DNA of 64,000 nucleotides from Alphaproteobacteria bacterium (GCA_964291285.2 OZ219788.1:192001-256000); one strand, 5' to 3'. Counted from the stretch's first letter, positions 43,589 to 60,800 are shown. Program-made: numbers and translations. The notes: generated by a model not told the origin, from the sequence alone.

Positions 43589-43961
43589 CGCAAGGGCGGG
43601 CAACGGCGCCTCCCGCTCCGGCGCCGTGCCGGGCCGAAACGACGATGGGGTCCGTGCAGGGCGAGAGAAATACGCCACCCCGCTGTGATCTCCAATCGTG
43701 TCACACGTGCTCGCGACAGCAACCCCTGCGGGGTCCTCCGGTCGCTCCGCTCCCTGCGGCCCGGGCAAGAAGCTCCAAGGGCGGACCGTGAAAGTCGACG
43801 ACCGTGAAGATCGCAGGGCGATCTTCCGCACCATCGCCGACTTTCCGCACCACTCCGCCCCAAGAGCTTCTACGCCCGGGTGCTTCTGCTGCGCGCGCGT
43901 GCCCCGACAGGACATCACAACGGGGATCGGCCCCGAACGTGAAAACCGAAAGGAAAACGAC

Positions 43962-44888
43962 ATGACCTTCCATACCGATACCACCGAAACCGCAGCACAG
44001 TCCGCAACCGCGATCGTCTGCGACAACGCCGTTCTCTTCGGCGCAACCCCCGAGCGCGACGAGTTCGACACCCGGGAGATCTGGGACCAGGACGAGGCCA
44101 TCACCGCCGTCGCCGAAGCCTTCCGCATCCTCAGCCAGGGCGTCGCGCCCGACGGATACCAGATGGCAGACGAACGCGAACACCTCCTCTGGGGCTTCGT
44201 CAACATGCTCCACGCACAGACACAGCGCCTCGACCGCGCCGCCGACAGGCTCACCCCCGAACTCCAGGACCTCCAGCGCACACAGGACGGCTCCGAGATC
44301 AGGTCGCTGGAACTGGAACTCGTGACCGACCGCGCACAGTGCCTCACCGCACGCCGCGACGCCTTCGAGACCCTGCGCAACGAGGCCGCCGAAGCCTACC
44401 GCGCAGACACCGGCGACACTTGGCGGCCCCGGCGCGGCAGCCACGCCAGCCAGACCGGACATCTGACCTCCGCTGCCATCGACGCCCGCGACTTCGTCCG
44501 CGCCCGAAAGGACCGCAAGACACAGGCTCACCTGCCCCAGGGAACCCTCGTCGCCATCGCAGGCGGAAAGGACATCGCAAACCCGGCGGCGGTCATCGAG
44601 CGCCTCGACAAGGTCCGCGCCAGGTATGCCGACCTCGTGCTCGTGCATGGCGGCGGCCCCGGCGTCGAGAAGATCGCCGCAAGCTGGGCAGAGCGCAACG
44701 GCGTCCACCAGGTCGTCTGCAAGCCCGACTGGGACCGCCACGGTCGCGCCGCACCCTTCCGCCGCAACGACGAACTGCTCAACCTCCTGCCCAAGGGCGT
44801 CATCGCCTTCCCCGGCTCCGGCATCACCGAGAACCTCGTCGACAAGGCGAAGCAGCTCGGCATCCCGGTGATGAAGGTAGCAGCCTGA
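43962..44888 (+). CDS. DUF2493 (YspA-like SLOG) domain protein
   Basis: C-terminal AIAGG, LVHGG..G.E.IA..WA, PDW..HG.AAPFRRN, FPG.GI. Confidence 0.85.
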   Translation: MTFHTDTTETAAQSATAIVCDNAVLFGATPERDEFDTREIWDQDEAITAVAEAFRILSQGVAPDGYQMADEREHLLWGFVNMLHAQTQRLDRAADRLTPELQDLQRTQDGSEIRSLELELVTDRAQCLTARRDAFETLRNEAAEAYRADTGDTWRPRRGSHASQTGHLTSAAIDARDFVRARKDRKTQAHLPQGTLVAIAGGKDIANPAAVIERLDKVRARYADLVLVHGGGPGVEKIAASWAERNGVHQVVCKPDWDRHGRAAPFRRNDELLNLLPKGVIAFPGSGITENLVDKAKQLGIPVMKVAA

Positions 44889-45526
44889 CCGCAACGCATC
44901 GCGGGCCGTGTCGTCGCTCCGGCGGCGGCACGGTCCGTTTCCTCTTTCGCACATCGATGACGCGGCAACGCCAACCTCGCGCGCTTCGCGCCGCACTCGT
45001 GCTCCGGCTTCGCCGATCGCGCTTGCGTTCCGCGTCCGCGTCACGCGCCGCTGCACCATGCTTCGCCCGGGTGCATCGCCGTCCGCGCCGATCCCGGCGC
45101 ACCGCCCGCCGCACTTCCGCCAGCGTGACTGTCGACGGCACTGCCGGCGCTGCCGCCCGTCCGCTCGGCACGGTGCTTCGCACCAGTGCCCGCGCTCGCG
45201 CCGGCGAGGCCGTCCGCTCACACGCCGCGGCGGCTCCCCTCCGCCGCTCTCGCCAGCGTCGATTTCCCCATCGTGAATGCTATCCCTTCCGGCTCTGTCT
45301 CGACGGCGGAGCCGCTATTTCGTCACACCCGACGCATCCTTGATGCAGGGAGCGAGGCCCGGCCGGCCTGCATCGGTCGGCAGTTTTCCGTTGCGTGACA
45401 GACGGTTGGGCCTGATCCGCCCTGTGGCCGCGATCCCCCGCGCGGGTCGCGTTGTCCGTTCAGGAGCGCCGTTCCGTTCCCCCGGGACGGACGGCGCCCG
45501 AGGGAACAGACAACGGAGACACGCCC

Positions 45527-46663
45527 ATGCGCATCCATGCCCCCGTCAACGAGCGGACGGTCCGCCGCACCTTCAGGGAGAAGAAACCCGGACGATACGG
45601 CCTGACCGTCATCGACAGGGACCTGCCCGCCTTCGGCTTCACCGTCGCCGGGAACGGAACGAAGACCTTCTTCGTCCGGACCTCACGCCAGTTCGGCGCG
45701 CCCAGGGCGATCCTCGGCACGACCGACGACATGACCGCCGCCGAGGCGAGGGAGAAGGCCATTGCCGCCATCGCCGAAGCCAAAGCCGACCGCGAGACCG
45801 GGCCGCTGTTCGCCGACTTCGCGGCCGACTTCATGCGCCGCCAGGGGCGGCGCTGGAAACCCTCCACGAGGAAGGCCAACGCCCATCTGATCGAGCGCCG
45901 CCTCCTGCCCTTCTTCGGCGCGATGCCCGTCGCGAAGATCGACCGCGCCGATGTGCGGCGCTGGTTCGATTCCCTCAGCGGAACCCCCGGCAGCGCCAAC
46001 CGGACCCTGCCGGTGCTGTCGGTGATGATGCGGCAGGCGGAGCTGTGGGACCTTCGCCCGCAGGGCTCCAACCCCTGCCGCAACATGCGGCGCTACAGGA
46101 CGGCGCCGCGCGAGCGGTTCCTGTCCCTGGACGAGTTGAAGCGCCTCGGCTTCGTCCTCGACCATGCCGAGGACCGGCAGGCCGCCGCCGCCATCCGCCT
46201 GCTGCTGTTCACCGGCGCCCGGTCGTCCGAGATCGCCGGCCTGCAATGGGACTGGATACGGGACACCCGCGCGGTGTTGCCGGACTCCAAGACCGGACCG
46301 AAGGCGCTCCAGCTTCCCCCGCCCGCGCGGGCCGTCCTGAATGGCCTGCCGCGCGAGGGACGCTTCGTCTTCCCGAACGGGAAGGGCGACGGCCCGATGA
46401 CCGACCTCGGCCTGCGCTGGCAGAAGCTGCGCGGTCTCGCCGGGCTGGACGATGTGCGCATCCACGACTGCCGGCATACCTTCGCCTCCCATGCCGTGAT
46501 GAGCGGCCTCGACCTCTACACCGTCGGCCGCCTGCTCGGCCATGCCGATACCGCCTCCACCGAACGCTACGCCCATCTCGCCGACAAGCATGTCCGCGAG
46601 GCGGCCGGGCGCATCTCCGGCATCGTCCACGAGGCCATGACCGGGAAGGAGAGCGGGCGATGA
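45527..46663 (+). CDS. tyrosine recombinase/integrase (first of a tandem pair)
   Basis: TGARSSE, SKTG, HDCRH, LLGH, TERY. Confidence 0.92.
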   Translation: MRIHAPVNERTVRRTFREKKPGRYGLTVIDRDLPAFGFTVAGNGTKTFFVRTSRQFGAPRAILGTTDDMTAAEAREKAIAAIAEAKADRETGPLFADFAADFMRRQGRRWKPSTRKANAHLIERRLLPFFGAMPVAKIDRADVRRWFDSLSGTPGSANRTLPVLSVMMRQAELWDLRPQGSNPCRNMRRYRTAPRERFLSLDELKRLGFVLDHAEDRQAAAAIRLLLFTGARSSEIAGLQWDWIRDTRAVLPDSKTGPKALQLPPPARAVLNGLPREGRFVFPNGKGDGPMTDLGLRWQKLRGLAGLDDVRIHDCRHTFASHAVMSGLDLYTVGRLLGHADTASTERYAHLADKHVREAAGRISGIVHEAMTGKESGR

Positions 46664-48009
46664 GCGGCGGCAGGCATCGTGTCCGGCTCACCGTGAAGGC
46701 CGTCGCCGCCGCCAAGCCGGCGGAACGGGAATACACCCTGTGGGACAATCTGCTGGCGCATTTCGGGGTCAGGGTGCAGCCCTCCGGCGTCCGGTCCTGG
46801 ATCGTCCAGACCCGCGTCCGGGGACGCATGCGCAAGATCACCCTCGGGCGCTTCCCCGAACTGCCTCTCGACGCGGCGCGCCGGGAAGGCGCGGCCGTGC
46901 TCGCCCGCCTGTGGGGCGGCGAGGACGTGACGCCGCCGCGCAAGGAGAAGGCGCCGCTGTTCCGGGACTTCGCCGCCCGTTACCGCTCGCGGCGGAAACA
47001 CCGCTGGAAGCCGTCCTCGCTCAAGACCTTCGATAGCTACATGAAGAACCGCCTGATGCCGCATTTCGGCAGGCTCCGGCTCGACGCCATCGACCATGCC
47101 CGCGTCTCGGCATGGTTCGACGCCGCCAGCGCGGACAGGCCCGGCGCCGCCAACCGCGCCTTCGAGATTCTCCGCGCCATGCTCGGGACGGCCCGGCAGT
47201 GGGGCGACATCGGCGAGCATGTCCCCGACGCCTGCGCCAACATCGTGAAGAACCCCCGCAAGCCTGTCGCGCGCTACCTCAGCCGCGAAGAACTGGAGCG
47301 TCTCGGAGCGGTGCTCGACCGCCACCGGGAGCAGCACCCCTGGCCGGTGGCGGCCATCCGGCTGCTGACCCTGACCGGAGCGCGGCTCTCTGAAGTCATC
47401 AACCTCAGGTGGGACGAGATCGGAGAGCTGGGCGGAGACGGCGCGAGCGCGCGCATCGAAGACTCCAAGACCGGCCCGCGCACCATCTGGCTCGGACCCG
47501 AAGCGGCAAGGCTGGTCGAGGCGCTGCCGCGACCGGATGGCCGGGAGCGGGTGTTCCCCAAGACCCTCACACCGGCAAGGCTCTACACCTTCTGGTGCGG
47601 TATCCGCGACGAGGCGGGGCTTCCGGGCCTTCGCATCCACGACTGCCGCCATACCTGGGCCTCGCAGGGCGTCATGAACGGCGTCGGGCTCACCACCGTC
47701 GGACGGCTGCTCGGTCACCGCAAGCGGGAGACCACCGCGATCTACGCCCATCTCGACGATGGCGCGCTGCGCGACGCCGCCGCCCAGGCCGCGGGCGTCA
47801 TCGCGCGAGCGATGGGGTACAGGGCGGAAGCGCCTCCGCTGCCGGACAAGGCGGAACACGGCGACGTATTGGCCGCAGCGCCCGGGCTCCCGGGTCCCGG
47901 AAAGCCAACCGCGCCAGAGAAGGAGCGGATTCCTCTTCGTGGCAGATCCCGGGATCCGGAGCGATCGGATGCAAGCATCCGCCGAAGACCGCAGGGTATC
48001 GAGATCTGA
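46660..48009 (+). CDS. tyrosine recombinase/integrase (second of a tandem pair)
   Basis: ATGA overlap; WD....FGVRVQPSG, TGARLSE, SKTG, HDCRH, LLGH, TAIY. Confidence 0.92.
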   Translation: MSGGRHRVRLTVKAVAAAKPAEREYTLWDNLLAHFGVRVQPSGVRSWIVQTRVRGRMRKITLGRFPELPLDAARREGAAVLARLWGGEDVTPPRKEKAPLFRDFAARYRSRRKHRWKPSSLKTFDSYMKNRLMPHFGRLRLDAIDHARVSAWFDAASADRPGAANRAFEILRAMLGTARQWGDIGEHVPDACANIVKNPRKPVARYLSREELERLGAVLDRHREQHPWPVAAIRLLTLTGARLSEVINLRWDEIGELGGDGASARIEDSKTGPRTIWLGPEAARLVEALPRPDGRERVFPKTLTPARLYTFWCGIRDEAGLPGLRIHDCRHTWASQGVMNGVGLTTVGRLLGHRKRETTAIYAHLDDGALRDAAAQAAGVIARAMGYRAEAPPLPDKAEHGDVLAAAPGLPGPGKPTAPEKERIPLRGRSRDPERSDASIRRRPQGIEI

Positions 48010-48129
48010 GCTTGTGGCGAGCGTGGAGCCGATCGGGGAGGGTCAGGCAGGGTCTTTGCCATGCGCCCCGATCAGGTTGCCGGTTGTCCCGCCAGTTACA
48101 GGGAAAGGGCCCGTCGAGCCGGCTCTGCG

Positions 48130-48540
48130 GGCTCGTCGTTCATGCCGGCAATGTTCAGGACCGCGACGGAGCCCCGGCCGTGCGGAAATCGATCCGCCAT
48201 GCCTGCCCCCCGCCTTCGCGGGGGCAGGCTCCTGGCTGCGCCATCTGTTCGCCGACGGCGGGTATGCCGGGCCGAAGCTGCGCGGCGCCTCGACAGGATC
48301 GGCAAGTGGACGCTCGAGATCGTCAAGCGGTCGGTCATCGCAAGCGGCTTCGAAAGCCTCTCTGGACGATGGGTCGCCGGACGCACCTTCGCGTGGCTCG
48401 GACGCTGCCGCAGGTTGGCGAAAGACCGGGAGAAATCCATCGCCTCAAGCGAAGCATGGATCGAAATTGCTCACATCAGGCTTACAACACGGCGCCTCGC
48501 AAGGCCCTGTAATCCTTGAAGGAGTTTCAAGTCAGGTTCC
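48130..48540 (+). pseudogene. degenerate IS5-family (IS1031-like) transposase 3' remnant
   Basis: H.GNVQDRDGA, WLRHLFADGGYAG, RWV..RTFAWL.R.RRL.KD spread over three frames. Confidence 0.8.
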
Positions 48541-48635
48541 GAGGCGGACGCGCCTGTCGAATGGCAATCAGCATTCTGTTGGATTTTAGAACATTCTTAT
48601 GCCATATTGTATGCAAATAAGACATGGAGGCTCCA

Positions 48636-48980
48636 ATGGCACCTGTTACGACACTCGAGCCCAAGACCGTACCGGCATTCCCTGCCGGGGAAATCGAGGC
48701 CTGTATCCGCGACGTCCTGGCGGACACAGGCGCGATGCAGGTGGCGCTGCACGGCGGCGCAACACCAGCAGGCGACCCGGGCAGCGCGGTCGGTCCGCAG
48801 CCGGTGATCGATTCGCTGGTCGTTGTGGAAGTGCTGCTTGAAATCGAGCCGAAAGTACCGTTCGCGCTTCCCGACAGTCTGGTACAGGCGGGCGGTTACG
48901 ACAATGTCGATGAGGTCGTGCAGCATCTTGTGCCACAACTGGAGCGGCGGTGGCGCAAGCATCATGAGGAGAAAAATTGA
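48636..48980 (+). CDS. acyl-carrier-protein-like small protein
   Basis: IDSLVVVEVLLEIE matches the ACP helix II DSL motif; GGAGG RBS. Confidence 0.6.
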   Translation: MAPVTTLEPKTVPAFPAGEIEACIRDVLADTGAMQVALHGGATPAGDPGSAVGPQPVIDSLVVVEVLLEIEPKVPFALPDSLVQAGGYDNVDEVVQHLVPQLERRWRKHHEEKN

Positions 48981-49372
48981 TGGCGGACAAAAGTAGGCAA
49001 GGCGAAACCTGGAGGGACGAAACGATTGACCGGCAACAGCTTGGCGCGCGTTTGCGCGAGGCGCGAGAGTACTTGGGCCTATCACAGGATGAAGTAGCAA
49101 AGTACCTCGGGATTCCGCGAACGGCGTTGTCGCATATCGAAAGCGGTCAGCGCCGCCTCGACGCGCTGGAACTGAAAAAGGCTGCGCATCTGTATAAGCG
49201 CCCCATTGCCCATTTCACCGGAGAGGCAGAAGCTGATGCAAGCCTGCCTGACGACATCGCCCATCTGGCGCGTGCCGCTGCCGGCTTTTCGGAAAGGGAT
49301 CGCCAGGAATTGAGCCGGTTTGCCGACTATCTGCGGGCACGCGCGCAAAGCGAGGGGTCCTCGGATGGCTGA
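48980..49372 (+). CDS. XRE/Cro-family HTH regulator
   Basis: LREARE.LGLSQ.EVA..LGI.R.ALS.IESG.R; TGATG coupling. Confidence 0.92.
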   Translation: MADKSRQGETWRDETIDRQQLGARLREAREYLGLSQDEVAKYLGIPRTALSHIESGQRRLDALELKKAAHLYKRPIAHFTGEAEADASLPDDIAHLARAAAGFSERDRQELSRFADYLRARAQSEGSSDG

Positions 49373-50381
49373 CGTCCGCAATGCCATTTTGCGCGGCAAA
49401 CGCGCGGCCGGCCGGTTGCACCGAGCGTTAGGAATGCGGGAGCGTGTCGAAGCGGAAGGCGGCCGGATCGACGTGTTCGACACGATCATTAAATCGGGTG
49501 TGCCGCTTTTGTTTAAGCCGCTAGAAGGATTGCTCGGCGTTTTCATCAATGAGCCGATGCCCGGTGTCATGGTGACGACGAAGCGGGGACTCAGTATTCA
49601 GCGCTTCACCGGCGCTCATGAGCTGGGGCATTGCGTCCTTGATCATCGTCCGAGTCTTGATGATGAGTCGATTTTGCGACGGTCGCCGTTCAATACCACG
49701 CCGGATTACGAGCAGCAAGAACTCGAAGCGGACGCATTCGCCACGGAGTTCATGATGCCGCCTTGGCTGTTCGTGGCGCATTTCCTGCGACACGAGTGGA
49801 CGCCTGCGTTGATGGCGGATCCGCTGATGGTCTATCAACTCTCGCTGCGGATCGGTACGAGCTATGAGGCCACATGCCGGTCATTGATGCGGCCCGGCGT
49901 TGCCGTGATACAGAAGAACACGGTCGATAACCTGCTCCGTGTGCAGCCCAAGGCCATCAAGAAAGCGTTGCTCGGAGACTATGAACCGCCCGACTGGCGG
50001 CGGGATGTCTGGCTGCTGACGAAAAATGACGAAGGTGCCGTCATTGAGGGCAGCCGTTCGGACCTCTTTGTGCTCAAGTTGAAAGAACACAGCGGGTCCG
50101 GCTATGTCTGGACCTTCGACGAACTCAACGAAGCGGGCTTTGCCATTGTCCGCGACGAGCGTGAGGGACCGGACGGCGAAACAATCGGCGGGCACGTGAT
50201 GCGGTCGATTACGGCGCGCTCCGAAGGACCGCAACAGGGACGAATGGCACTTGCAGAGCGGCGCCCATGGCTTGCCGAAGGCGCACCACTGGCCTCATTC
50301 TGCGTCCACTATGACCTGAGCGGGCCGCAAGATGAAGGGATGTCGCAAGCCGAGCGGCGGCGTCTGCTGGGGGCCGCCTGA
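49365..50381 (+). CDS. ImmA/IrrE family metallopeptidase with C-terminal chagasin/I42-like domain
   Basis: RFT.AHELGH and E.EAD.FA...LMP-like motifs; C-terminal L.EHSGSGY.W ... IGG ... RRPW. Confidence 0.85.
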   Translation: MADVRNAILRGKRAAGRLHRALGMRERVEAEGGRIDVFDTIIKSGVPLLFKPLEGLLGVFINEPMPGVMVTTKRGLSIQRFTGAHELGHCVLDHRPSLDDESILRRSPFNTTPDYEQQELEADAFATEFMMPPWLFVAHFLRHEWTPALMADPLMVYQLSLRIGTSYEATCRSLMRPGVAVIQKNTVDNLLRVQPKAIKKALLGDYEPPDWRRDVWLLTKNDEGAVIEGSRSDLFVLKLKEHSGSGYVWTFDELNEAGFAIVRDEREGPDGETIGGHVMRSITARSEGPQQGRMALAERRPWLAEGAPLASFCVHYDLSGPQDEGMSQAERRRLLGAA

Positions 50382-51082
50382 TGGAGGTTACGGTCGAGTG
50401 TGACCTGCGTCATTTGTTCGGCCCGGCGCGCGATCAAGGTATGCGGCCAACCTGCATGGCCTTCGCGGCAAGCGACGCCCACGCGGCAGCCCGGCCGGGT
50501 TGGGTTCCACTGTCGTGCGAATACGCCTATTTCCATGCACTGAAACGGGACGGGGGCATCCCAGATGACGGGACAACGCCCGATGCTATGCTGACGGCGA
50601 TCAAAGAGGACGGGCAGCCACCAGAGACGGCTTGGGCGTACCTGCCGCGCATGCCAGCCGACTTTACGCTATGGAAGCCGCCCGAAAGCGTCAGCCCTAT
50701 CTACCGGCGTGCCAACGCCTATGACCGCGCATCACTCGCGGCAATCCGCACAGGGCTAGATGCCGGAGTACCGATGATCACAACGATGTGTCTGTCCGAT
50801 GCATTCTTCCAGCCCGACCCGGACGGCATTATCGACGCATGCGAGCCACCCGACCCGCAGCGGCGGCACGCGATTATCGCGGTCGGCTATGGCACTCGGA
50901 GTGGCAACCGACTGATCCTTGTACGGAATAGCTGGGGCACGGACTGGGGCGCCGATGGTTATGCGTGGGTAAGCGAAAGCTATCTTGTACCCCGTTTGTA
51001 CGATTTTGCAGAAATGAAAGAGGATCTGACGAGTGTACCTGCCGATCCCAACGCAGCCAACGTGCGCAACAGCGTGGCTTGA
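50381..51082 (+). CDS. papain-like C1 family cysteine peptidase
   Basis: DQG.RPTC.AFA (oxyanion Q, catalytic C), HAIIAVGYG (H), RNSWG..WG..GY (N); no signal peptide. Confidence 0.92.
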   Translation: MEVTVECDLRHLFGPARDQGMRPTCMAFAASDAHAAARPGWVPLSCEYAYFHALKRDGGIPDDGTTPDAMLTAIKEDGQPPETAWAYLPRMPADFTLWKPPESVSPIYRRANAYDRASLAAIRTGLDAGVPMITTMCLSDAFFQPDPDGIIDACEPPDPQRRHAIIAVGYGTRSGNRLILVRNSWGTDWGADGYAWVSESYLVPRLYDFAEMKEDLTSVPADPNAANVRNSVA

Positions 51083-51842
51083 GGCCTTGGTGGCTGTCGA
51101 CAAGGTGCCCGGCCACGAAGCGCACAATGTGATTATCGACGTGGCCGAGCCGCTGGCGCAGACCGCTGCCGACGCGCGCATGATAAAGGTCGCCGACGAT
51201 TTCTTACGTGGCCGTGGCGCAATGCCCCTGCAATCCGTGGCGAATACGATCTTCCCGGAGGGTCTATACCGGCGGCACGGCGCGCCTGCTCTCTATCACG
51301 TGTATGGACAGGTTTACCAGCAGGTAAAGAAGAAGCAAGGCGATTGGGGCCGGTATTTTGAACGGATGATTCGCCGCCCGACTACAAACGGCAAGAACAT
51401 CAATCCTCTCGCCGACATGATTGCGAAAATGACGCAGCATGTTCACGGTGGCGGCAAAACGTTCCGCAACATATACGAGTTGACCGTTTCCGATCCAGCT
51501 CTCGATGTGCCCATCTATGATCCCGAACGTGATGCCGGGCCGGTGATGAACCGACAGTGCATGAGCTTCCTGAGCTTCAAGCTTGATCATGAAAACCGCA
51601 TGATGCTGACCGCCTTGTACCGGAACCACTATTACATCGAACGGCTGTTCGGCAATCTGATTGGCCTCGCTCGGCTGATGGCTTTCGTTGGGCGCGAGGC
51701 CAATGTGCCGGTTGGTCCGCTGACCGTCATCTCCACCCACGCCGAAATCGACACGCGGCGCGGCTGGAAACGCCACGATATCAAAGAGCTAATCGCTGCG
51801 TGTCGGGAAGCCACAGCTCAAAAGGTGAGCGTCGTCGCGTAG
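51033..51842 (+). CDS. divergent thymidylate synthase-like protein
   Basis: QCMSFLSF...L.ALYRNH...LFGN..GL..L...G.L..ISTHA parallels the TS PC/YQRS/PFN/H motifs. Confidence 0.65.
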   Translation: MYLPIPTQPTCATAWLEALVAVDKVPGHEAHNVIIDVAEPLAQTAADARMIKVADDFLRGRGAMPLQSVANTIFPEGLYRRHGAPALYHVYGQVYQQVKKKQGDWGRYFERMIRRPTTNGKNINPLADMIAKMTQHVHGGGKTFRNIYELTVSDPALDVPIYDPERDAGPVMNRQCMSFLSFKLDHENRMMLTALYRNHYYIERLFGNLIGLARLMAFVGREANVPVGPLTVISTHAEIDTRRGWKRHDIKELIAACREATAQKVSVVA

Positions 51843-51846
51843 GCGA

Positions 51847-52497
51847 TTACCTGCCTGCGCTGGCGGTGCAACGTACGCCGTAGAGGTCGCACATGCTGTG
51901 AATGAACTCCTTCTGTCCACCATAACTCGGATGCCGCACGGCGGTCGACGCAAGATCAAGGTGGGAGAGCGCTTGCTGCGCATCGCGGCCTATGGCGACG
52001 AGGCGCCGGGGCCGGAGCATCTGCATCAGGGTCAACAAAAGATCGCGGAACACGTCCCTCTCCGCGCGCGTATGACGGCGATTGGAAAGGGGCTCGCCAG
52101 TCTCGAAGGGATGAAGCGGGAACACGTTCCACAGGAAGATTGGCCTGTCGATTTGGGTGAGCACCTTCCAGACGATGGCCGCCGTACGCTCGGCCATTGG
52201 TGGCCCTTTCGTCGCGCGTGAGATCGACACACCGTAAATCTCTCTGAATGTCTGCAGGTGAATATCGTCCGTGAGCGGCAACCCGGTCCGGCGTCCGCCA
52301 CGATAACCCAGATCGCGCGCAAGCCAAATTGAGTCCACTTCTTCATCCGCAATAGCTTCAAGAAAAGCGCACAAATTGGCGTGCCGCCTTTTCGGAGCGT
52401 CAGCGCGATCATGGACCGGACAAACATCGCTGTACGGATTAAAAACAGCGTCGAGATGGACGCCGCTCAAGGCCTCGACAAGGGCGGACGGTTTCAT
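51847..52497 (-). CDS. uracil-DNA glycosylase superfamily protein
   Basis: FNPY, GYRGGRRTG.P.TD, WNVFP.HP, SNR, VA.GR.A, VRHPSYGG. Confidence 0.85.
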   Translation of the reverse strand: MKPSALVEALSGVHLDAVFNPYSDVCPVHDRADAPKRRHANLCAFLEAIADEEVDSIWLARDLGYRGGRRTGLPLTDDIHLQTFREIYGVSISRATKGPPMAERTAAIVWKVLTQIDRPIFLWNVFPLHPFETGEPLSNRRHTRAERDVFRDLLLTLMQMLRPRRLVAIGRDAQQALSHLDLASTAVRHPSYGGQKEFIHSMCDLYGVRCTASAGR

Positions 52498-53729
52498 GCG
52501 GGCAACCTCTCAAAGGTTATGGTTCGTTCATTCAGATCGGCGATAACACTACCGCGTCTGTGCTCGCGTAGCGCACGAAACACTTCATAGCCGCTCAGGA
52601 TTGCCTCTTCCCATAGCCAGAGCGGGCAGCGCTCCGGTTCATATCCGGTGACGAGCGCCCGCGCATTTTTGAGAAGGCCGTAATCGACACCGCTTAAATT
52701 CTCGAAAAAATTCACCTGCGTAGCGTGATTGAATATCCAGGTCGCAACACCTTCCTCAATCAGTATGGCGCGAGCTCCGTCCTCGGCCTCATCGATCTCG
52801 GGACGGCTTTTGCGCTTGACCCGAAAGAGCGCCCGCATGACCGGGGACCACCCCAGTTTGGCCGCGTAAGCAAGATGGAAAACATCATGGAAGCAATAAT
52901 CGTCTTTTTCCAGCTTGTTGTCGGTAAGCCGGTCACCGACATTGATGCCATTGCAGCGCAGAAAAACATACATCTTTTTTTTCACCGTCTTCTCGAAAAT
53001 CTGCATCTCGATACGCCGCGGAATCTGCTCCCCGGAATCGTATTCGTCGTCGAAGAGCGGCGGATAGATGCACTTCAGTGGCCAGCGGTCGTAAATCTTG
53101 GAGAGATTGCGATGCGCGGCTTCGCCCAAGCTGACGCCGACGTTGTTAGCAGCTTTTATAATAGTACGGAATACAGCTTCCATGTGGTCCGAAAGGCCAC
53201 CGGACCCGTCCGCGATTTGACTTGCCGAAAAATCGGCGATCAGTTTGCCAACCTCGCCGGCCAAACGTATGAGCGTTGTCTCGAACACGGCTTCGGCGTC
53301 CGGTCCTGAGACCGACAACGTTGGCTGAAGCATTGAAAAGGTGATGTCTGGCACGCTATCGTTGGAACCGCCGTCACTGATGCGGCTGGCGAGCACTGGA
53401 AGCGTGATCTGTGCCCGGCTGGCCAAGCGGGAGAAATACCAAAGGACGTCCCCCAACTCTTCGATGACTGACTGCTGGTAACCGAAATAAGAATCGGAAT
53501 CGCGCTGCTTCTTCTTAAGTTCAGACAGCAGGCTTCCTGCCTCGCCAAACAGACCTAGCAGAGGGAAAGAAATTCCCTCGGGCATCCGGTCTGTACCGCA
53601 GGACAGGGTTTGATATTGCGCGAGAGTGAGTTCGCAATAGGGAGCTCTCAGAACTGCCTCAAGCGCACCTGACATTTTGTCGCGGTGCTCCGCAGAGTTC
53701 TTGCTCTCGCCGAAACGGAGGTTCGCCAT
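52494..53729 (-). CDS. MazG-like nucleoside triphosphate pyrophosphohydrolase with MazG-C-type C-terminal domain
   Basis: LGLFGEAG...ELKK, EELGDVLWY; second degenerate MazG repeat; C-terminal D.Y.FHD.FHLA...LGWSPV.R....KRKS....DE.EDGARA; GAGG RBS at MANL start. Confidence 0.85.
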   Translation of the reverse strand: MANLRFGESKNSAEHRDKMSGALEAVLRAPYCELTLAQYQTLSCGTDRMPEGISFPLLGLFGEAGSLLSELKKKQRDSDSYFGYQQSVIEELGDVLWYFSRLASRAQITLPVLASRISDGGSNDSVPDITFSMLQPTLSVSGPDAEAVFETTLIRLAGEVGKLIADFSASQIADGSGGLSDHMEAVFRTIIKAANNVGVSLGEAAHRNLSKIYDRWPLKCIYPPLFDDEYDSGEQIPRRIEMQIFEKTVKKKMYVFLRCNGINVGDRLTDNKLEKDDYCFHDVFHLAYAAKLGWSPVMRALFRVKRKSRPEIDEAEDGARAILIEEGVATWIFNHATQVNFFENLSGVDYGLLKNARALVTGYEPERCPLWLWEEAILSGYEVFRALREHRRGSVIADLNERTITFERLPA

Positions 53730-53829: not shown

Positions 53830-54723
53830 CTACTCTCGTCTGGCACCGAAACCACCGACGATGCCGCGTTTCTCGAAGGCGCCCGCGGCTTCGGCATGGT
53901 TCGGGCCGTGGAAGCCGCCCCGGATGATATCCCCCGAGGCTCCGGAACCGAATGTGCCGTCCGCGCCGACCGGAACGTCGTCGAAGCTGACGGCGTCGAC
54001 GGGCCAGGCATTGCCGTTCGCATTATCCCGGATGTTGCCGATCGCCACGTCGATCGTGCCGGCCGCAGCGCTCCAGGAGAGAGTCGCGTCCCCGGCCAGG
54101 CGGGTTCCGGCCGCGGCTTCCTCGACTGCCGTCCCGACCATCCGCCCGGTCCATGTCGCGCTGGCCGGCGGTCGCGACCCTGTCAGGTCTCTGCCCGCAA
54201 ACCCGAAGCGCGTCATCGGCTGCCCGGGTTCTTCGGCCACGCCGAACACGCTGTGCGTCATCCAGTAGCCGTAGGTTCTCCGGTCGCCGGACCGGTATTG
54301 GAAGTCGGTTGCACCGTTGCGGGCGGCGCCCCTGGCGACGCCTGAAATATCCGCAGGGAACAGGTCGGAGATCGTCCGGGCCGGGGGCGCACCCTCACCG
54401 GTCCACAGGCAGCGGGCCCGGGCGCATGTGGCCGTCGCGACAGGACTGCTTCCGGCATGGGCGCCGGTCGCGACGAGGGTATCCGCGCGCCGGGCGAAGT
54501 CCCGGGCACGCGCCTTTTGCTCCTCCGGACCCTCCGACCCGGACGGATCGACGCCGACTACCTCCCTGGCGACATGATCGCCGAAGTCGCCGCCCAATTT
54601 CTTGAAATCGGAACCGGAGCAGGCGCCCAAAGTCAGCAGGAGGGCTGCCGCAACAGCCCCGGAAGGACCGGATATTCGGGCCTTCCGCCGGCAAAACAGG
54701 TATGGCGATCCGGTGCTGCACAT
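53830..54723 (-). CDS. putative lipoprotein with TbpB-like C-terminal beta-barrel
   Basis: Lipobox LTLGAC; ATW.G.MVG, G.F.GPNH.E.AG.F....G.FGA terminus; start uncertain. Confidence 0.65.
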   Translation of the reverse strand: MCSTGSPYLFCRRKARISGPSGAVAAALLLTLGACSGSDFKKLGGDFGDHVAREVVGVDPSGSEGPEEQKARARDFARRADTLVATGAHAGSSPVATATCARARCLWTGEGAPPARTISDLFPADISGVARGAARNGATDFQYRSGDRRTYGYWMTHSVFGVAEEPGQPMTRFGFAGRDLTGSRPPASATWTGRMVGTAVEEAAAGTRLAGDATLSWSAAAGTIDVAIGNIRDNANGNAWPVDAVSFDDVPVGADGTFGSGASGDIIRGGFHGPNHAEAAGAFEKRGIVGGFGARRE

Positions 54724-55873
54724 GCTGTGGCTCCTCCCTGTCCGTATCACGGAAGCAGCGCGTTGTGGGCAAATGCCCGATGTGCCGGGATAGCGCCGAC
54801 CCACCTCGCGATCCGCCTGGCGGTCACGGTCGCTCTCCGACCGACTGTTCCCGCAGTTCCGCAAACGGACAGGGAAGGCCCGCAATGATGGCAACGGTCT
54901 CCACGCTGACCTGCACGATGCGGCACAACGCCGGGATGAGGTCACGCGGGTCGTCGAACCAGCCGTTGGGGTCATTGACGATGCCGCTCTGCCGGTCGCG
55001 GACGATACGGTAACGGTCGATCAGCCATTCGAGCGGGGTGCGCCCGTTTACCCGATACTCGTGTGCTTGCGGGGGGATGCCCGACAGGCGGACCAGGTCG
55101 TTGACGATGAGAACGGTCCGGTCCGCGTCGGCAAAGCGCATGGCGCGCTGGCCGAGCCGGAATTGCGTCGGCGCAGGCTCGCCTTTCCCGGCATAGTCGA
55201 GCCGCAGCGGATATTCCTCGCAGGTCTCGTAGCCGAGATGCAGCGCCGCGAGGCGGCGGCCGGCCTCGGCGAAGGCATGGAAATCGCCGGCGAGCGGAAT
55301 GCGCGGCAACTCCTTCGTCAGGTCGTTGGCGAAACGCTCCCGGTATGAGGGCGCATGCAGGACGCCATAGACATAGTCGAAGATCGCGTCCTTCGTTATC
55401 GTGCTGTCGCCGTAGCGCACCCGGAAGGCGCGCAACGCGGTGTCGGCAATGTTGTCGATGCACGTCGGCGGCGGTCCCATGCCGGGCAGGCTCTGCTGGT
55501 CGTCGTGGCGCTCATAGCGGTATCGCGGGAAGCACTGGCCGAAAGCGACCAGATGGAGGTCCGGCATCGTATCGACGACCAGTGCGGAGAACGGCTTGGT
55601 CGAGCCGACCCCCGGGACGCAGATCGCGCGGTTCCCGGTCTCGGCGGTGGGGAAGATGCTGTCCTGCTGGTACTTGTTGTTGACCAGGACATAATCGACA
55701 TAACAGTGCTGCTTGATGAATGGTCGGTATTGCGTCTCCCAGACATTACCTTGCGAATAAGCGACCTCCTTACGTCGCCGGAGGTTGTTTTTGAGTTCCC
55801 GATCCCATCGAACACCTGCCGAATGGCGATTCGCGATCTGCTCCACGGTTTTATCGGGATCGTCGTTTTTCTT

Positions 55874-57812
55874 GAGGCGTGTGCGCTGTTTGGAAGTGCT
55901 TTCTGAGCAAGGCATTGCGGAGGGTCTGGATTTTTCTTACCCCGTCAGGATGGCTGATTTCCGGGGTTTTTGCGGTTTGAAGGGAAAGGTTTTGTGGATT
56001 TCCACCCCATGGCCGTGCGCGGGCTGGTTTTCGGGCGCGTCGCGTTGAGGCGCGGGACTGAGTAGAAGGTGTCGCCATCGGGCCTGCGGCCCTTGTTCCA
56101 TCCACCGGCGCTGGTTGGGAGAACGTGATGGCGACAGCGGAGAAGTTAGCCTTTTCGTGGTGGTCTGTGGAGGGCCTTGCGGACCTTGAGCGTCTGCGTG
56201 TGGTGCTCGACACGCTTCCCGACGAGAAGGTTGTGGCTGCGCTTGAGGCGGGTCGAGGCCGGGGTCGCAACGACTACCCGGTGCGGGCGATGTGGCGGGC
56301 TCTGATCGCGGGGATCGTGTTCCAGCATGCCTCGATGCAGTCGCTGCTGCGTGAGCTGGGCCGCAACCCGGCATTGCTTGAGATTTGCGGGTTCGAGGCG
56401 CTGCCCTTGCAGGGTGCGCCGGTGGTGGCGCTTTGCGCAGGGCGCGCGGTGAGGCGTCCGGCGCCGTTGCGCTCGACGGTGCCGGGCGCCTGGAACTTCT
56501 CGCGGTTCCTGGGGCGCGTGGTGCGCCTTGAGGACGAGCGCGGCCTTGTGTCGGGGATGATCGGGCGTCTGCGCGCCTCGCTGTTCGAGGAGTTGCCGGA
56601 CTTCGGTCGCCATCTCGGCTACGACGGCAAGGCGGTGGCGAGCCACTCGACGGGCCGGGTTGCCGGGGCCAGGGGGCAGACCTCGGACCCCGATGCGGAC
56701 TGGGGCAGGCACGAGACGGGCGGGGTGAACGCGAAGACCGGCGCGGTGTGGAAGAAGGTGAAGTCGTGGTTCGGCTACGGGCTGCACCTGATCGCCGACA
56801 CGGACCACGAGGTTCCTGTGGCCTTCGAGGTGACGCGGGCGTCGGCATCGGAACCCGGGGTGCTGTCCGGGATGCTGGAGGAGTTGTTCGCCGAGGCGCC
56901 GGAGATGGCCGGGCGCTGCGCCGATTTCAGCGCCGACCGCGGTCTCGACAACGCCCGCCTGAAGGCGCGGTTGTGGGACAGGTGGCATATCCGCCCGCTG
57001 ATCGACACGCGCCTGATGTGGCGGGTCGAGAAGAAGGAGCCGGGCCATGACCCGGCCCGGCCGATCACGCGACCGCTGTTCCCCGGGCGCGCCGACGTCA
57101 TCGTTCATGACGAACGCGGCCGGGTGTCCTGCGTGTGCCCGCAGACCGGCGAGGTCCGCGCCATGGCCTTCCAGGGGTTCGAGGTCGGGCGCGGCGTCTG
57201 CGGCACGCTCAAATACCGCTGCCCCGCAGCCGCCTTCGGCTTCGAGTGCAAGGGACGCCGGGCCTGCCATCGGGCGGGTGGGGTGAAGTCCGGCGAATAC
57301 GGCCGCATCCTGCGCGTCGACCTCGACAGCCATGACCGGCGTATCTTCACGCCCACGCCCTGGGGCAGCCCGTCATGGCGGCGCGGATACAACCGGCGCA
57401 CCGCCATGGAGCGGATCAACGCCCGCCTCGACCGCAGCTTCAACTTCGAGACCCATTACATCCGCGGACGCGCGAAGATGAAGACCCGCATCGGGCTGGC
57501 CCTGGCGGTCATGATGGCCATGGCGCTTGCACAGGCCCGCGCCGGACGCGTCGCACGCATGCGCTCCCTGGTCGGCCCGGCGCCATACCTCGATACCGGC
57601 TGACCCCTCAGCCGACTGCCGACAACGCTGACCCAACCCGCCGGACCCCGGCATACGGACAAACGCGACCGAAGGCCGGCGATGCTGCCGGGCTGGGCCG
57701 CTCAAGTTCGAAAAGCAACCGCGGCGACCGCCTCGAACGCCGGAACAAACAACATCAACACCCGGACCCAACGTCCCATCCGACCGGAAAAACCCCACAG
57801 CGCAAATTTCTC
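55874..57812 (+). mobile_element. IS1182-like DDE insertion sequence, copy 1 (1939 bp)
   Basis: Ends GAGGCGTGTGCGCTGT / ACAGCGCAAATTTCTC; 5-bp TSD TTCTT. Confidence 0.88.
56125..57603 (+). CDS. transposase (DUF772-type N-terminus, DDE)
   Basis: GR.DYP..AM, DGK, DPDADWG, FGY.LH, ADRG.D, Y.RR...ER.N. Confidence 0.88.
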   Translation: MMATAEKLAFSWWSVEGLADLERLRVVLDTLPDEKVVAALEAGRGRGRNDYPVRAMWRALIAGIVFQHASMQSLLRELGRNPALLEICGFEALPLQGAPVVALCAGRAVRRPAPLRSTVPGAWNFSRFLGRVVRLEDERGLVSGMIGRLRASLFEELPDFGRHLGYDGKAVASHSTGRVAGARGQTSDPDADWGRHETGGVNAKTGAVWKKVKSWFGYGLHLIADTDHEVPVAFEVTRASASEPGVLSGMLEELFAEAPEMAGRCADFSADRGLDNARLKARLWDRWHIRPLIDTRLMWRVEKKEPGHDPARPITRPLFPGRADVIVHDERGRVSCVCPQTGEVRAMAFQGFEVGRGVCGTLKYRCPAAAFGFECKGRRACHRAGGVKSGEYGRILRVDLDSHDRRIFTPTPWGSPSWRRGYNRRTAMERINARLDRSFNFETHYIRGRAKMKTRIGLALAVMMAMALAQARAGRVARMRSLVGPAPYLDTG

Positions 57813-60800
57813 TTCTTGAAATCGCGCAGCGCCGCCTGATAGTCTTCCACCATCCGCCGCGCGTTCTCCGCACAAGCGTCGCGGGAGAAACTGTAAATGT
57901 AGGCGTCCCGGCTGGTCGCCAACCCCCTCGAATACAGCCGGAACACCGCCTCGTCCGTTCTGCCCGCCTTCGCCGTCTTCGATCCCAGGGGATAGAGCGC
58001 CCGGAACGCCTCGTTACGCTGGCCGATCCAGTCGTGGTGCCGGTCGGGGGCGGTCTCCTCCCAGTCCGTGACGCCGGCGATCGACCCCCACTCGCGCAAC
58101 AGCCCCAACTTGTCCTCGCGGGAGAGATAATCGCCGATGTCGCGGTAGAGGATGCGGCAGCCGTCATGCTGCGCGTCCGGATTCTTCGCGAGGACGGCGA
58201 TCGCGACCGGCGCCCGGGACCCTTGGCCGAAGGCGTTATCGCCTTCCGAGCGGCGGCGTTCCCCCGATGTCCGGGCATTACCCCGCAGGTTCACCACATG
58301 GATCGACGAGAACTCCTCCGCCAGGCAGGCGCGGACGCCGGAGTCGACATTGCCGTCGATCCAGGAACCGTTGGTCACGAAGGCCACGACGCCCCGGTCG
58401 CCGATGCGGTCCGAGGCCCAGCGGATTGCCATCTTGTATGTATCGTAGAGACTGTTCTTCAGCGTTGCCGTGGAGCGGGCGGCATAGGTCTCGGCGACGC
58501 GCTGCTCGATTTCCGGATAGCTCACATTCGGGTTGTCATCGGCCGAACTCCGCTGTCCCGCGGACCAGGGCGGGTTGCCGACGATGACCTGGATGGGCAG
58601 TTGCTGCTGGCGTTCGGCGCGTTCGCTGTTGCCGGGCAGCCAGTCCTTCGGGAAGCCCGAGCGCCCGGTATGCAGGTTGAAGGTGTCGGTGAGCACGATG
58701 CCGCCGAAGGGTTCATACTCTTCATTGTCGCCGACCCGGCCGTGGAACGCCTCCTCGATATGGATGGCGGCGATGTAGTAGGCGAGCAGGACAAGCTCGT
58801 TGGCGTGCAACTCCTCCCGGTACTTGCGCCCGAGGTCGGCATCGCGAAGCAGCGCCGACTGCAACAGCCGGACCAGGAAGATGCCCGTCCCGGTAAAGGG
58901 GTCGAGGATGTGGACACCCTTGTCGCTCAGGCCCCGGCCGAACTCCTCGCGCGCCACATGGTCGGCGCTTGCGAGGATGAAGTCCACGATCTCGACCGGC
59001 GTGTAGACGATGCCAAGCCGGTCCGCTTCCTTCTTCATCGCCGTCGCGAAGAACTTCTCGTAGAGTTCCATCAGCACGCGCTGGCGGGCTTCCGGGTTGT
59101 CGAGCCCGCGCGCCCGCAGCCTTACGCTTTCGTAGAAGCGGTCCAGGTCACGGGTTTCGTTTTCCAGCCCGAATTCGCCGAAGTCGCGCCGCAGCGCATC
59201 CAGCGCCCGGGCGACCGGGTTGCCGCCAGCGAAGTCGTAACCCTCGAACAGCGCCTCGAACACCGGACGAGTCAGGATGTGCTGCGCCATCATGTCGATG
59301 GCGCTCTCGGTCGTGATCGATTCGTTGATAGAGACCTTCAACTCTTCGTGGAACGCCTCGAACCACTCGCTCAGGGTCTCGTTGCCGGGGTCGGCAAGCA
59401 GGCCGCCGATGCGCGTCACGAGGCGTGAGAAGATATCCGCGACATCCTTGGCCCAGCTTTCCCAGTATCTGCGGTCGCCGCATTTCTCGACGATCTTCGC
59501 GTAGATTGCGCCGGGTGGCAGATCGAGAGGGGGGAACGCAAGCTCGGGCGAGTCGGGGATGACCTCCCCGTTGACGCCATCCCGGCTGAAGATGATCCGA
59601 TCCGTCGGCCGGTCGTTCAGATCGATCTGGTTAATCTCGGCGTCGAAACGGTCGTCGTGCGAGCGCAGGGCGCGCAGGACGCTCCAGACGACATCGAACT
59701 CCTTGCCGCTGTCGAGCACCAGGACCGGATCGCGCCCCTCCGGCACCGCGATCGGGAGCACGATATAGCCGTAGGTCTTGCCTTCGGCCTTGCGCATGGC
59801 GCGGCCCACGGCCTGGACAATGTCGACAGTGCTCCGGCGCTCGGTCATGAAGATCACCGCGTCGAGCGCCGGCACGTCGATCCCTTCCGACAGGCACCGG
59901 GCGTTCGAGAGGATGCGGCAGCCGCCCTCTGTCGTCCCTTTCAGCCATTCGAGACACGCCTTGCGTTCAAGGGCGTGATGCTGTCCGTCCACATGCCGCG
60001 TCTCGCACCGGAGCGCCGCGCGCCGTTCAGCTTCCGGCAATAGTGCGGCGGCCTGCTCGACGAGACCGCTCCAGTGCTGAGCCAGAAGTTGCGACGACCT
60101 GATCCGGTCGGTAAACGCGATCGCGCGGCGAAGCGGCCGGCCGGGACCGTCTTCCGGCCGCCGGTTTTCCGGATCCTGCAGGACCCGCCAGCAGCCGACG
60201 ATCCGGGCGACGTCGCTCAGGTTGACCGCGCCGTCCGACGAGGCGAGGTGGGCCTGCAACGCCCTGTCCACATGGCTCTCCGACAGGGCGAAAATGGCGA
60301 CCCTGTAGTCCGACAGCAGACCCTGCTCGATGGCCCGGGAGAACGGGAGGCGGTGGAACTCCGGCCCGTAGGTCGCCTCGTCGTCCATCGAGAAGACGTC
60401 GACGCCATGGCTTGCGGCTTTCGTCTTCGCCCCTTCGGTATAGAGCCTCGGCGTTGCCGTCATGTAGAGGCGCCGCGCGGCCCGGATACGACCGGCGTCG
60501 TGCACGAGGACGAAGGGCGAGGTCTTGTCGCCGGGGCGCTCGATCCCCGTCGTCCGGTGCGCCTCGTCGCAGAGGACCAGATCGAACGGCGGAGCACCTT
60601 CGTCCTGCGCCTGCGCGACGAGGCCGATCGAATGGTAGGTGCAGAACACCGCGGTCATCGCATCCGGCGACGCAAGTTGCAATGCCTGGCCGATGGCGCC
60701 CGGATCGGTGGTCACGGGGATTTCCAGCTCCAGGAACGAGGCGTCCTCGTCGGCGCGCCCCGCGCGGGTATCCGAGCAGATGCCGACATAGCGGTGCGCC

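Follow-up and report, generated by a model that had tools for sequence, protein, structure and literature searches.

The window analysed here is a 64,000-nt stretch from an Alphaproteobacteria bacterium (all coordinates are relative to it), and it carries a compact seven-gene cassette of about 5.2 kb in which a thymidylate synthase (TS)-like protein, a uracil-DNA glycosylase (UDG)-like protein and a MazG protein are combined with a carrier protein, a repressor and two proteases. On a plausible but still tentative reading, the cassette is a single mobile, stress-induced and most likely anti-phage system, in which deoxythymidine triphosphate (dTTP) would be replaced by a 5-substituted deoxyuridine triphosphate (dUTP; most likely 5-hydroxymethyl-dUTP) and the modified base in DNA would then be excised or phosphorylated. 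This reading builds on observed folds, conserved catalytic residues, gene linkage, the mutual exclusion of glycosylase and kinase, an operator and a mobile genomic context. Five closely packed plus-strand open reading frames (ORFs) encode p118, the XRE repressor, the M78-I42 protease, the C1 peptidase and the TS-like protein, and the UDG-like and MazG ORFs lie on the minus strand, convergent on the TS-like ORF with 4-nt spacing:

48578..48592, no strand assigned: imperfect palindrome GTTGGATTTTAGAAC that resembles an operator, within the first gene's promoter; probable XRE site
48624..48980, plus: p118, acidic carrier protein resembling acyl carrier proteins (ACPs), with invariant Ser64 (DSL motif) and G90-G91-Y92
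48977..49372, plus: XRE-family helix-turn-helix (HTH) repressor, CapH-like (Pfam HTH_3 E 1.3e-13; PADLOC capH E 4.8e-11)
49320..50381, plus: M78 (ImmA/IrrE/CapP-like) zinc metallopeptidase with a C-terminal chagasin-type I42 domain (Pfam, PADLOC)
50381..51082, plus: cytoplasmic papain-family C1 cysteine peptidase (Pfam Peptidase_C1 E 5.1e-13)
51033..51842, plus: TS-like protein, 269 aa, TS fold, with Cys176, Arg197, Asn208 and Tyr200 at the folate-binding Asp position
51847..52497, minus: UDG-like protein, 216 aa (Pfam UDG 29.7 bits), fold nearest SMUG1
52494..53729, minus: MazG protein, 411 aa (ATG at 53729), with two MazG repeats, the second degenerate, followed by MazG_C (Pfam, hhalign)

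A sequence-only reading of this DNA had singled out the last three genes as a uracil-centred enzyme triad. Its three ORFs (51033-51842, 51847-52497 and 52494-53729) and their motifs were correctly placed, and its expectation that the three genes do not occur independently held; as a unit, however, the triad was drawn too small, since five genes make up the operon, with TS-like in fifth place after carrier, repressor and two proteases, and the UDG-like gene is an optional part of the cassette. These statements rest on a search of one genome per species across 185,579 species, which yielded 141 confirmed relatives of the TS-like protein; the best 80 of the 141 loci were analysed, with genes counted by tblastn in fetched flanks of 8 kb or less. 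Among the 80 loci, the C1 peptidase is present in 79, XRE and M78-I42 in 78 each, MazG in 74, p118 in 72 and the UDG-like gene in 55, a co-occurrence of TS-like with MazG and UDG-like far beyond chance. The five plus-strand genes are collinear in all 72 loci that hold all five (compact in 68), TS-like closes the regulator operon throughout, the UDG-like gene converges on TS-like wherever present (55/55), and MazG lies directly upstream of UDG-like in 49 of the 53 loci with both. The edges of the cassette are sharp, because none of the gene families in the flanks recurs in more than 13 of the 80 loci. The hosts are diverse (Alpha-, Beta- and Gammaproteobacteria, Acidobacteriota, Nitrospirota, Planctomycetota and Gemmatimonadota). 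The reading frames of the C1 peptidase and TS-like genes share 50 nt (51033-51082), and since a comparable overlap of 47-50 nt recurs in many related loci, translational coupling of the two genes is suggested. The true start of the M78-I42 gene is probably the ATG at 49365.

Pfam TS (PF00303) does not match the TS-like protein at E<=0.1, phmmer against PDB sequences returned chance-level matches only, and the archaeal TS model of NCBIfam (TIGR03283) matches residues 162-240 (E 1.4e-9) with 37.7 bits, under its cut-off of 174.55. An AF2 model built from an alignment of 32 relatives has a mean pLDDT of 87.7, and Foldseek against the PDB (395 matches at E<=0.001) ranks thymidylate synthases first (E about 2e-8, probability 1.00, TM about 0.5), followed at similar scores by the CMP hydroxymethylase MilA and the flavin-dependent dCMP hydroxylases 9iqc and 9iqu. 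In the Foldseek viral library, TS and dCMP hydroxymethylases match the model alike (E about 1e-8), and it is no closer to the hydroxymethylases than to TS. By its modelled fold, the protein is thus a member of the TS/deoxynucleoside monophosphate (dNMP) hydroxymethylase superfamily, and the TS fold on which the sequence-only reading depended is borne out. The hhalign alignment to E. coli ThyA is local only (probability 15%, E 0.0017, 110 columns) and pairs C176 with C146, YRNH with YQRSCD and N208 with N177, hence R197 with R166 and Y200 with D169. As had been read from the motifs, the catalytic Cys, the phosphate-binding Arg and the base-specifying Asn are kept, and the canonical pterin-binding Asp of ThyA (RSxD; D169 in E. 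coli) is not, Tyr200 standing in its place; the segment positions of C176, R197, Y200 and N208 are at least 95% conserved across the 80 TS-like sequences.

Searched against 1.84 billion representatives (clusters at 50% identity), the TS-like profile reached 1410 clusters at E<=0.001, of which 277 lie at E<=1e-30; because this count is far below what a profile reaching canonical TS would give, the family is, as far as sequence searches can tell, a clade of its own. PHROGs contained no match for the TS-like, UDG-like or p118 proteins, and tblastn of the TS-like protein against 50,697 phage records found no match. Asn208, taken together with the SMUG1-like and 5-hydroxymethyldeoxyuridine (5-hmdU) kinase partners described below, suggests a putative dUMP hydroxymethylase activity, by which 5-hydroxymethyl-dUMP would be formed from dUMP. 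Two related loci (L035 and L051, TS-like at 8001-8774) show an uneven divergence: their other six genes are 61-76% identical to those of the window, and TS-like is only 46-49% identical, the fall being limited to residues about 91-180 (17-37% per 30-residue block). This central segment, which has been swapped or is fast-evolving, takes in the low-confidence loop before the catalytic Cys. Additionally, in 10 of the 80 loci (L019, L021, L028, L038, L044, L045, L056, L059, L061 and L063) the cassette adjoins a 741-aa fusion of a calcineurin-like metallophosphatase to a second, weak TS domain (PF00303, E 3.8e-4); the opposite strand of that stretch holds a 174-aa ORF that may be a shadow ORF.

The UDG-like protein scores above the Pfam cut-off for PF03167 (29.7 versus 24.3 bits), and its two motifs are invariant in 26 sequences. 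Motif 1, A60-RDLGYRGGRRTG (A60-R-D-L-G-Y-R-G-G), is indeed as atypical as the sequence had suggested and fits no named family: the canonical forms are GQDPY, GINPG, GMNPG and GEAPG. Its Asp probably occupies the place of the catalytic residue, to judge by where the motif falls after strand 1. Motif 2 is of the HPS type (R188-H-P-S-Y-G-G-Q195; RHPSYGGQ). Profile searches from the sequence reached family 4 UDGs only, and weakly (E 0.007). The AF2 model (mean pLDDT 88.8) gave 36 Foldseek matches in the PDB at E<=0.001, the matches listed being UDG-family entries; the SMUG1 proteins of Xenopus, Geobacter and human are best (E 3.9e-9 to 5e-8, TM about 0.6), ahead of SMUG2 (E 1e-5) and of UNG, family 4 and UdgX (E 1e-4 or weaker). 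SMUG1 is the classical 5-hydroxymethyluracil (5-hmU) glycosylase. Family 3, to which SMUG1 belongs, gives the best structural match and shares the HPS-type motif 2; motif 1 of the present protein is ARDLGYRGGRRTG and not the SMUG1 motif; the UDG-like protein would represent a new UDG family near SMUG1.

Loci without the glycosylase typically carry a different enzyme module. HMUDK_hel, the helical domain of 5-hmdU DNA kinase (PF18723), is encoded in 21 loci, with a partial copy at the contig end of one more (L071; 22/80 in total), and within the fetched flanks it never shares a locus with the UDG-like gene (0/80). Neither is found in L007 and L024, and L073 stops at a contig edge. The kinase domain, which has no Walker A motif, is fused N-terminally to MazG-MazG_C in three loci (L026, L055 and L064; E about 1e-109) and encoded adjacently elsewhere; it is absent from the cassette of the window. 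Five plasmid loci show the same alternation (UDG-like in one, HMUDK in four, both in none). Accessory genes among the 80 loci encode dCTP-deaminase-like proteins (9), thymidylate-kinase-like proteins (11, often beside HMUDK) and 4'-phosphopantetheinyl transferases (PPTases; 16). The NMAD domain was not found in the present cassette. A set of Rhizobium, Neorhizobium, Mesorhizobium and Shinella loci (L008-L013 and L015) has a thymidylate-kinase-like gene upstream of p118 and, downstream of MazG, an additional conserved block that encodes an alpha/beta-hydrolase or thioesterase-like protein, a caspase-like (C14) peptidase and a 486-aa protein without a Pfam match.

The link to a modified uracil nucleotide drawn by the sequence-only reading gains ground from the retained Asn, the SMUG1-like fold and the replacement of the glycosylase by the kinase domain; its further statement that the trio makes, senses or destroys such a nucleotide is a matter of inference, and manufacture followed by attack on the product is the version preferred here. 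An improbable alternative is a defence aimed at phages with hmU or hypermodified thymidine in their DNA, in which glycosylase or kinase would attack the invader's hmU, MazG would destroy hmdUTP and the TS-like protein would restore dTMP. The closeness of the glycosylase fold to SMUG1 would suit it, and Brig1, a DNA glycosylase attacking modified phage bases, is reportedly a known defence. MazG enzymes are also described as clearing non-canonical dNTPs (PMC3855555). However, a TS without the folate-binding Asp and beyond the reach of Pfam TS is an unlikely source of dTMP, dCTP-deaminase-like genes raise dU nucleotides and so fit the making of a modified base over its clearing, a hypermodifying phage would gain from an hmU DNA kinase and not be hurt by it, and tight repression behind a protease gate suggests self-toxicity.

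The MazG protein has the composition expected from the sequence: one repeat with its acidic motif, one degenerate repeat and a conserved MazG_C domain. In the first repeat, E63, E90, E91 and D94 (the EExxE/D metal motif) are at least 95% conserved, and the window protein falls marginally short of the PF03819 cut-off (21.9 versus 22 bits), with eight variant proteins at 25 to 32 bits. Residues 118-222 form the second repeat; hhalign pairs them with the first (probability 87%, E 3.9e-6), and the EExxD motif is no longer present in them. MazG_C (PF18722) matches at E 1.3e-80, with 269.8 bits against a cut-off of 29.7. When phage records were searched by tblastn with the whole MazG protein, the N-terminal domain alone was matched. 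MazG_C is termed a predicted nucleotide kinase in the DefensePredictor paper (Science 2026, PMC13092281), and the cassette supplies a first context for this domain. Directly upstream of MazG, on the same strand, lies a 381-aa ORF (53830-54975, minus) that has no Pfam match and is not a recurrent flank family.

The first gene of the operon encodes a probable relative of ACPs. Pfam PP-binding does not match p118 of the window; a Streptomyces orthologue scores 32.3 bits against a cut-off of 20.8. Searched against the PDB, the p118 family profile returned 118 sequences at E<=10, nearly all of them ACPs among the 60 matches listed (best E 1.4e-5); the invariant Asp-Ser of the family aligns with the serine of the ACP DSL motif, Ser64 is invariant, and the top Atlas clusters near p118 are named acyl carrier protein (0.96). 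The PPTase gene adjoins the cassette in the 16 loci counted above and in Haloarcula, and none is present in the cassette of the window. Complex prediction for two TS-like chains with p118 gave a median score of 0.59 (best of three controls 0.00), with at least 22% of contacts agreeing between runs and a partner pLDDT of at least 70. Of 80 solved complexes, 58 reached the mark applied, as did 2 of 110 mismatched pairs, and scores of 0.60 or under comprise 7 of the 80 solved complexes and both passing mismatches; the prediction therefore hints only weakly at a complex, a pass at this level being more often wrong than right unless the pairing is already likely. A highly speculative idea, with very little probability attached to it, makes the carrier protein a reactant: its phosphopantetheine thiol would capture an electrophile made at C5 of deoxyuridine, and the adduct would be the immune effector. 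The electrophile could be an exocyclic methylene intermediate on the TS-like protein, or, in DNA, a kinase-activated hydroxymethyl group or an abasic site; covalently joined protein and nucleotide, or protein and DNA, would block replication and packaging of invader DNA, and the papain-like peptidase and the fused inhibitor would set or clear adducts.

The remaining genes of the operon appear to control it. The pattern GT..GA-WWW-TC..AC occurs within 500 bp upstream of the XRE gene in 51 of 76 loci, with 53 sites in those upstream windows versus 9 in the remaining 1.14 Mb, 8 of the 9 lying just outside the scored window; the palindrome is probably the XRE binding site. The present locus has only a looser copy, at 48578. 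A different palindrome, TTCATGAA, unlike the operator of the first promoter, stands upstream of MazG in 11 of 41 loci. The M78-I42 protein matches Pfam Peptidase_M78 (E 1.7e-8), PADLOC capP (E 3.6e-15) and Inhibitor_I42 (E 5.1e-7, 30.3 bits versus a cut-off of 27.2), and its HELGH motif at 100-104, G261, W264 and R315-P316-W317 are at least 95% conserved. The C1 peptidase scores 50 bits against the Peptidase_C1 cut-off of 20.7, with Q19, C25, H163, N183 and W185 at least 95% conserved. The I42 domain and the C1 peptidase occur together in 78 to 79 of the 80 loci; in Streptomyces, one scanned locus lacks both and two others lack the C1 gene, with an ImmA of similar length.

These Streptomyces loci, without a C1 peptidase and, in the scanned locus, without I42, are what would be expected if two independent modules co-travelled, namely a toxin-antitoxin-like set of protease, inhibitor and repressor with the carrier, and a nucleotide module of TS-like, MazG and UDG or kinase; the presence of the operator at the first promoter only also agrees with this. 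Such an arrangement is nevertheless regarded as doubtful indeed, as the TS-like gene always comes last among the genes of that operon, sharing about 50 nt with the peptidase gene, and carrier, XRE, M78 and TS-like stay together even in Streptomyces and Haloarcula.

The surroundings of the cassette are those of a mobile island. The GC content is 0.57-0.61 at 48-54 kb versus 0.65-0.74 elsewhere in the window, housekeeping genes (LpxK, gamma-glutamyltranspeptidase, cytochrome c assembly) stop near 35 kb, and no tRNA genes are found in the window. The window contains IS copies. On one side of the cassette lie a DDE transposase fragment and three tyrosine integrase genes, of which two stand in tandem immediately upstream, and on the other side lies a Type ISP restriction-modification enzyme:

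38423-39691, 45452-46663, 46660-48009 and 48061-48519, plus: tyrosine integrases and DDE transposase fragment (window scan)
54824-55915, minus; 57755-61528, minus; 56125-57603, plus: Type ISP restriction-modification enzyme with inserted DDE transposase (domain scan)

The Type ISP enzyme comprises Mrr-like nuclease, helicase, coupler, N6 methylase and Type_ISP_C domains, and it is probably inactive because the inserted DDE transposase gene cuts its ORF in two. The same island encodes a 396-aa protein with a C-terminal YAcAr (YspA/cpYpsA-related SLOG) domain (43698-44888, plus).

The host genome contains ThyX, a Pfam-level ThyA (PF00303) was not found genome-wide (the TS-like gene included), and the TS-like gene, single-copy in the host, was found with the query used in 3 of 61 related genomes, its own counted. 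The view taken from the sequence alone, that this is not housekeeping dTMP synthesis, is therefore sustained by ThyX, the absence of a Pfam-level ThyA, the patchy distribution and the low-GC island beside integrases and a Type ISP enzyme. That ordinary genes for dTMP synthesis, uracil repair and dNTP sanitation are adjacent by chance is hardly credible: relatives are named 'thymidylate synthase' in some sources and RefSeq calls the neighbour 'uracil-DNA glycosylase', but the cassette is patchy and mobile, ThyX is present, the gene order recurs across phyla and the catalytic motifs are divergent. Defence is preferred over housekeeping because of the CapH/CapP-type regulators, the mobile and restriction context of the window, the flank sample described next and the DefensePredictor precedent.

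Elsewhere, the cassette is borne on islands, integrative and conjugative elements (ICEs) and plasmids. Twenty plasmid records hold the TS-like gene, 11 of them conjugative. A Burkholderia glumae plasmid (L083) carries the full cassette, with a DUF4031 gene after MazG (9737-10051 there) and a protein kinase gene and IS elements in the flanks. An archaeal plasmid of Haloarcula marina encodes a PPTase, a small protein, an HTH protein, ImmA with I42, the C1 peptidase and the TS-like protein, with HMUDK and tmk genes nearby and a restriction endonuclease gene adjoining them, and three Streptomyces plasmids encode ACP, HTH, ImmA, TS-like, MazG-MazG_C and HMUDK, without the C1 peptidase. In a random sample of 130 of 417 flanking ORFs, McrBC, Mrr, AAA_21, Lamassu, PARIS, DRT, MADS, Mza and type IIG families were seen, together with conjugation genes (type IV secretion system (T4SS) coupling proteins, TraH, TrbI), these tallies being without a control set.

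Such carriage raises the alternative, considered unlikely though worth weighing, that the element on which the cassette travels modifies its own DNA to counter restriction: an induced ICE or plasmid would swap thymidine for hmU, or for a further derivatised thymidine, in the DNA that it transfers, paralleling phage thymidine hypermodification, with the carrier protein bringing the group attached after the kinase step. The conjugative plasmid records, the T4SS coupling proteins, TraH and TrbI in the flanks, and the suitability of a carrier protein and PPTase for a group-transfer step all speak for it, and TS-like, MazG_C and HMUDK together resemble the first steps of the phage pathway. ImmR/ImmA-type pairs, moreover, govern ICE induction, according to 10.1101/2022.04.27.489752. 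Nonetheless, the commonest form of the cassette (55/80) has a SMUG1-like glycosylase that would destroy such DNA, neither an aGPT-Pplase-type transferase nor an enzyme loading the carrier protein is among the ten recurrent flank families scanned, the cassette sits like cargo at varied positions in unrelated elements, and no conjugation genes were seen in the window island.

In the anti-phage reading that is preferred, the cassette would work in three stages, for which each enzymatic step, the nature of the group at C5, the inducing signal, any part played by the carrier protein and the effect on phages are all proposals. At the level of control, the XRE repressor would hold the promoter of the five-gene operon through the conserved palindrome, the M78 protease (a relative of CapP, IrrE and ImmA) would remove it upon a signal of damage or infection, and the chagasin-type domain of the protease would restrain the neighbouring papain-like peptidase, forming a second protease-level gate. 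In the rewriting of the nucleotide pool, MazG would hydrolyse dTTP, dUTP or both to the monophosphate, with the dCTP-deaminase-like protein adding dU nucleotides in some loci; the TS-fold enzyme would place a one-carbon or hydroxyl group on C5 of dUMP, most likely yielding 5-hydroxymethyl-dUMP, and MazG_C, or a thymidylate-kinase-like protein in some loci, would rephosphorylate the product. Replicating DNA would then take up the modified base instead of thymine. Phages with hmU in their DNA replace dTTP with hmdUTP through activities like those proposed for the TS-fold enzyme, MazG, the 5-hmdU kinase and the accessory gene products. In the execution stage, the SMUG1-like glycosylase of the window form would excise the modified base, leaving abasic sites and breaks, and in the alternative form the 5-hmdU DNA kinase module would phosphorylate it.

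Several observations weigh against this reading. Joint induction of the two operons lacks support because the operator of the first promoter was not found upstream of the MazG/UDG operon. PADLOC 2.0 has no match for the TS-like, UDG-like, MazG, C1 or p118 proteins, which leaves the TS-like, UDG-like, MazG and C1 proteins without a defence model there. Since the folate-binding Asp is absent and flavin-dependent TS-fold hydroxylases exist (the modelled fold being about as near to the dCMP hydroxylase 9iqu, TMt 0.66, as to TS), the group added at C5 could be a hydroxyl or another group. The model assigns no role to the carrier protein, though it is part of the conserved core, the tallies of defence genes in the flanks come without a control set, and the many occurrences on conjugative plasmids and ICEs are also compatible with an element that modifies itself.

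Compared with known systems, the proposed action on the dNTP pool and on bases in DNA recalls nucleotide-depletion and glycosylase defences (e.g., dCTP deaminase, dGTPase, Brig1), with the difference that the cassette would convert the pool to a modified nucleotide and afterwards turn on what the cell itself had made, a two-step logic not known to be part of those defences. Chagasin-papain pairs are matched in that I42 and C1 both score above their Pfam cut-offs and that the catalytic Gln, Cys, His, Asn and Trp and the RPW loop of the inhibitor are conserved; here, however, a metalloprotease carries the inhibitor as a fused domain, and the two cytoplasmic proteins, which would bind each other, lie inside a nucleotide-enzyme operon. 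The CapH/CapP switch is resembled in the succession of XRE repressor and M78 HExxH peptidase, in the PADLOC capH and capP matches and in a palindromic operator at the promoter, but the present regulators sit inside the operon that they control, in the same direction, and a carrier-protein gene stands first. CapP is activated by single-stranded DNA and has a C-terminal GAF domain (10.1101/2022.04.27.489752), and this sensor is replaced here by the chagasin I42 domain.

The DefensePredictor systems share the domain vocabulary of the cassette in a defence setting: that study (PMC13092281) reports a validated anti-phage system of E. coli with TS, dNMP kinase, 5-hmdU kinase and NMAD domains and lists MazG, MazG-C and UDG as predicted, unvalidated defence domains. 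The MazG-MazG_C and UDG operon described here may be one of the predicted systems in its Fig. 6F; its text and legends, on which the comparison is based, name no carrier protein, chagasin domain or C1 peptidase. A description of the whole cassette was not found in full-text literature searches, in which DefensePredictor alone proved relevant, although Burroughs 2015, cited by DefensePredictor for earlier predictions on these domains, may describe parts of it. Four features are apparently unreported: the carrier protein, the fusion of metalloprotease and chagasin domain that is paired with a papain-like peptidase, the TS-fold clade standing apart from others, and the alternation of glycosylase with kinase. 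The cassette offers a TS-fold clade whose cofactor site is altered, a metalloprotease in which a cysteine-protease inhibitor takes the place of the sensor domain and a carrier protein in a nucleotide system; it occurs in culturable strains of Rhizobium, Mesorhizobium, Sphingomonas, Methylobacterium and Streptomyces. If the preferred reading is true, cells have taken over the thymine-replacement programme of phages, secured it with a two-protease switch and linked it to an enzyme directed against its product in DNA, which would be an immune logic of marking all newly made DNA and then breaking it.

A close parallel is offered by the 5-hmdU pathways of phages, where thymidine replacement and hypermodification are said, in work by Iyer in 2013 and Lee in 2018, to involve a dUMP hydroxymethylase, a dUTPase/dTTPase, an hmdUMP kinase and a 5-hmdU DNA kinase. 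The cassette has counterparts in its TS-fold enzyme with a uracil-type Asn, its nucleoside triphosphate (NTP) pyrophosphohydrolase, its predicted nucleotide kinase, HMUDK in 22 of 80 loci and, in some loci, deaminase and thymidylate-kinase-like genes. It differs from the phage pathways in being cellular (the TS-like protein having no match in the phage records), in showing no aGPT-Pplase-type transferase among the recurrent flank families scanned, in its control by repressor and proteases and, in its commonest form, in having a glycosylase in the place of the kinase, together with a carrier protein.

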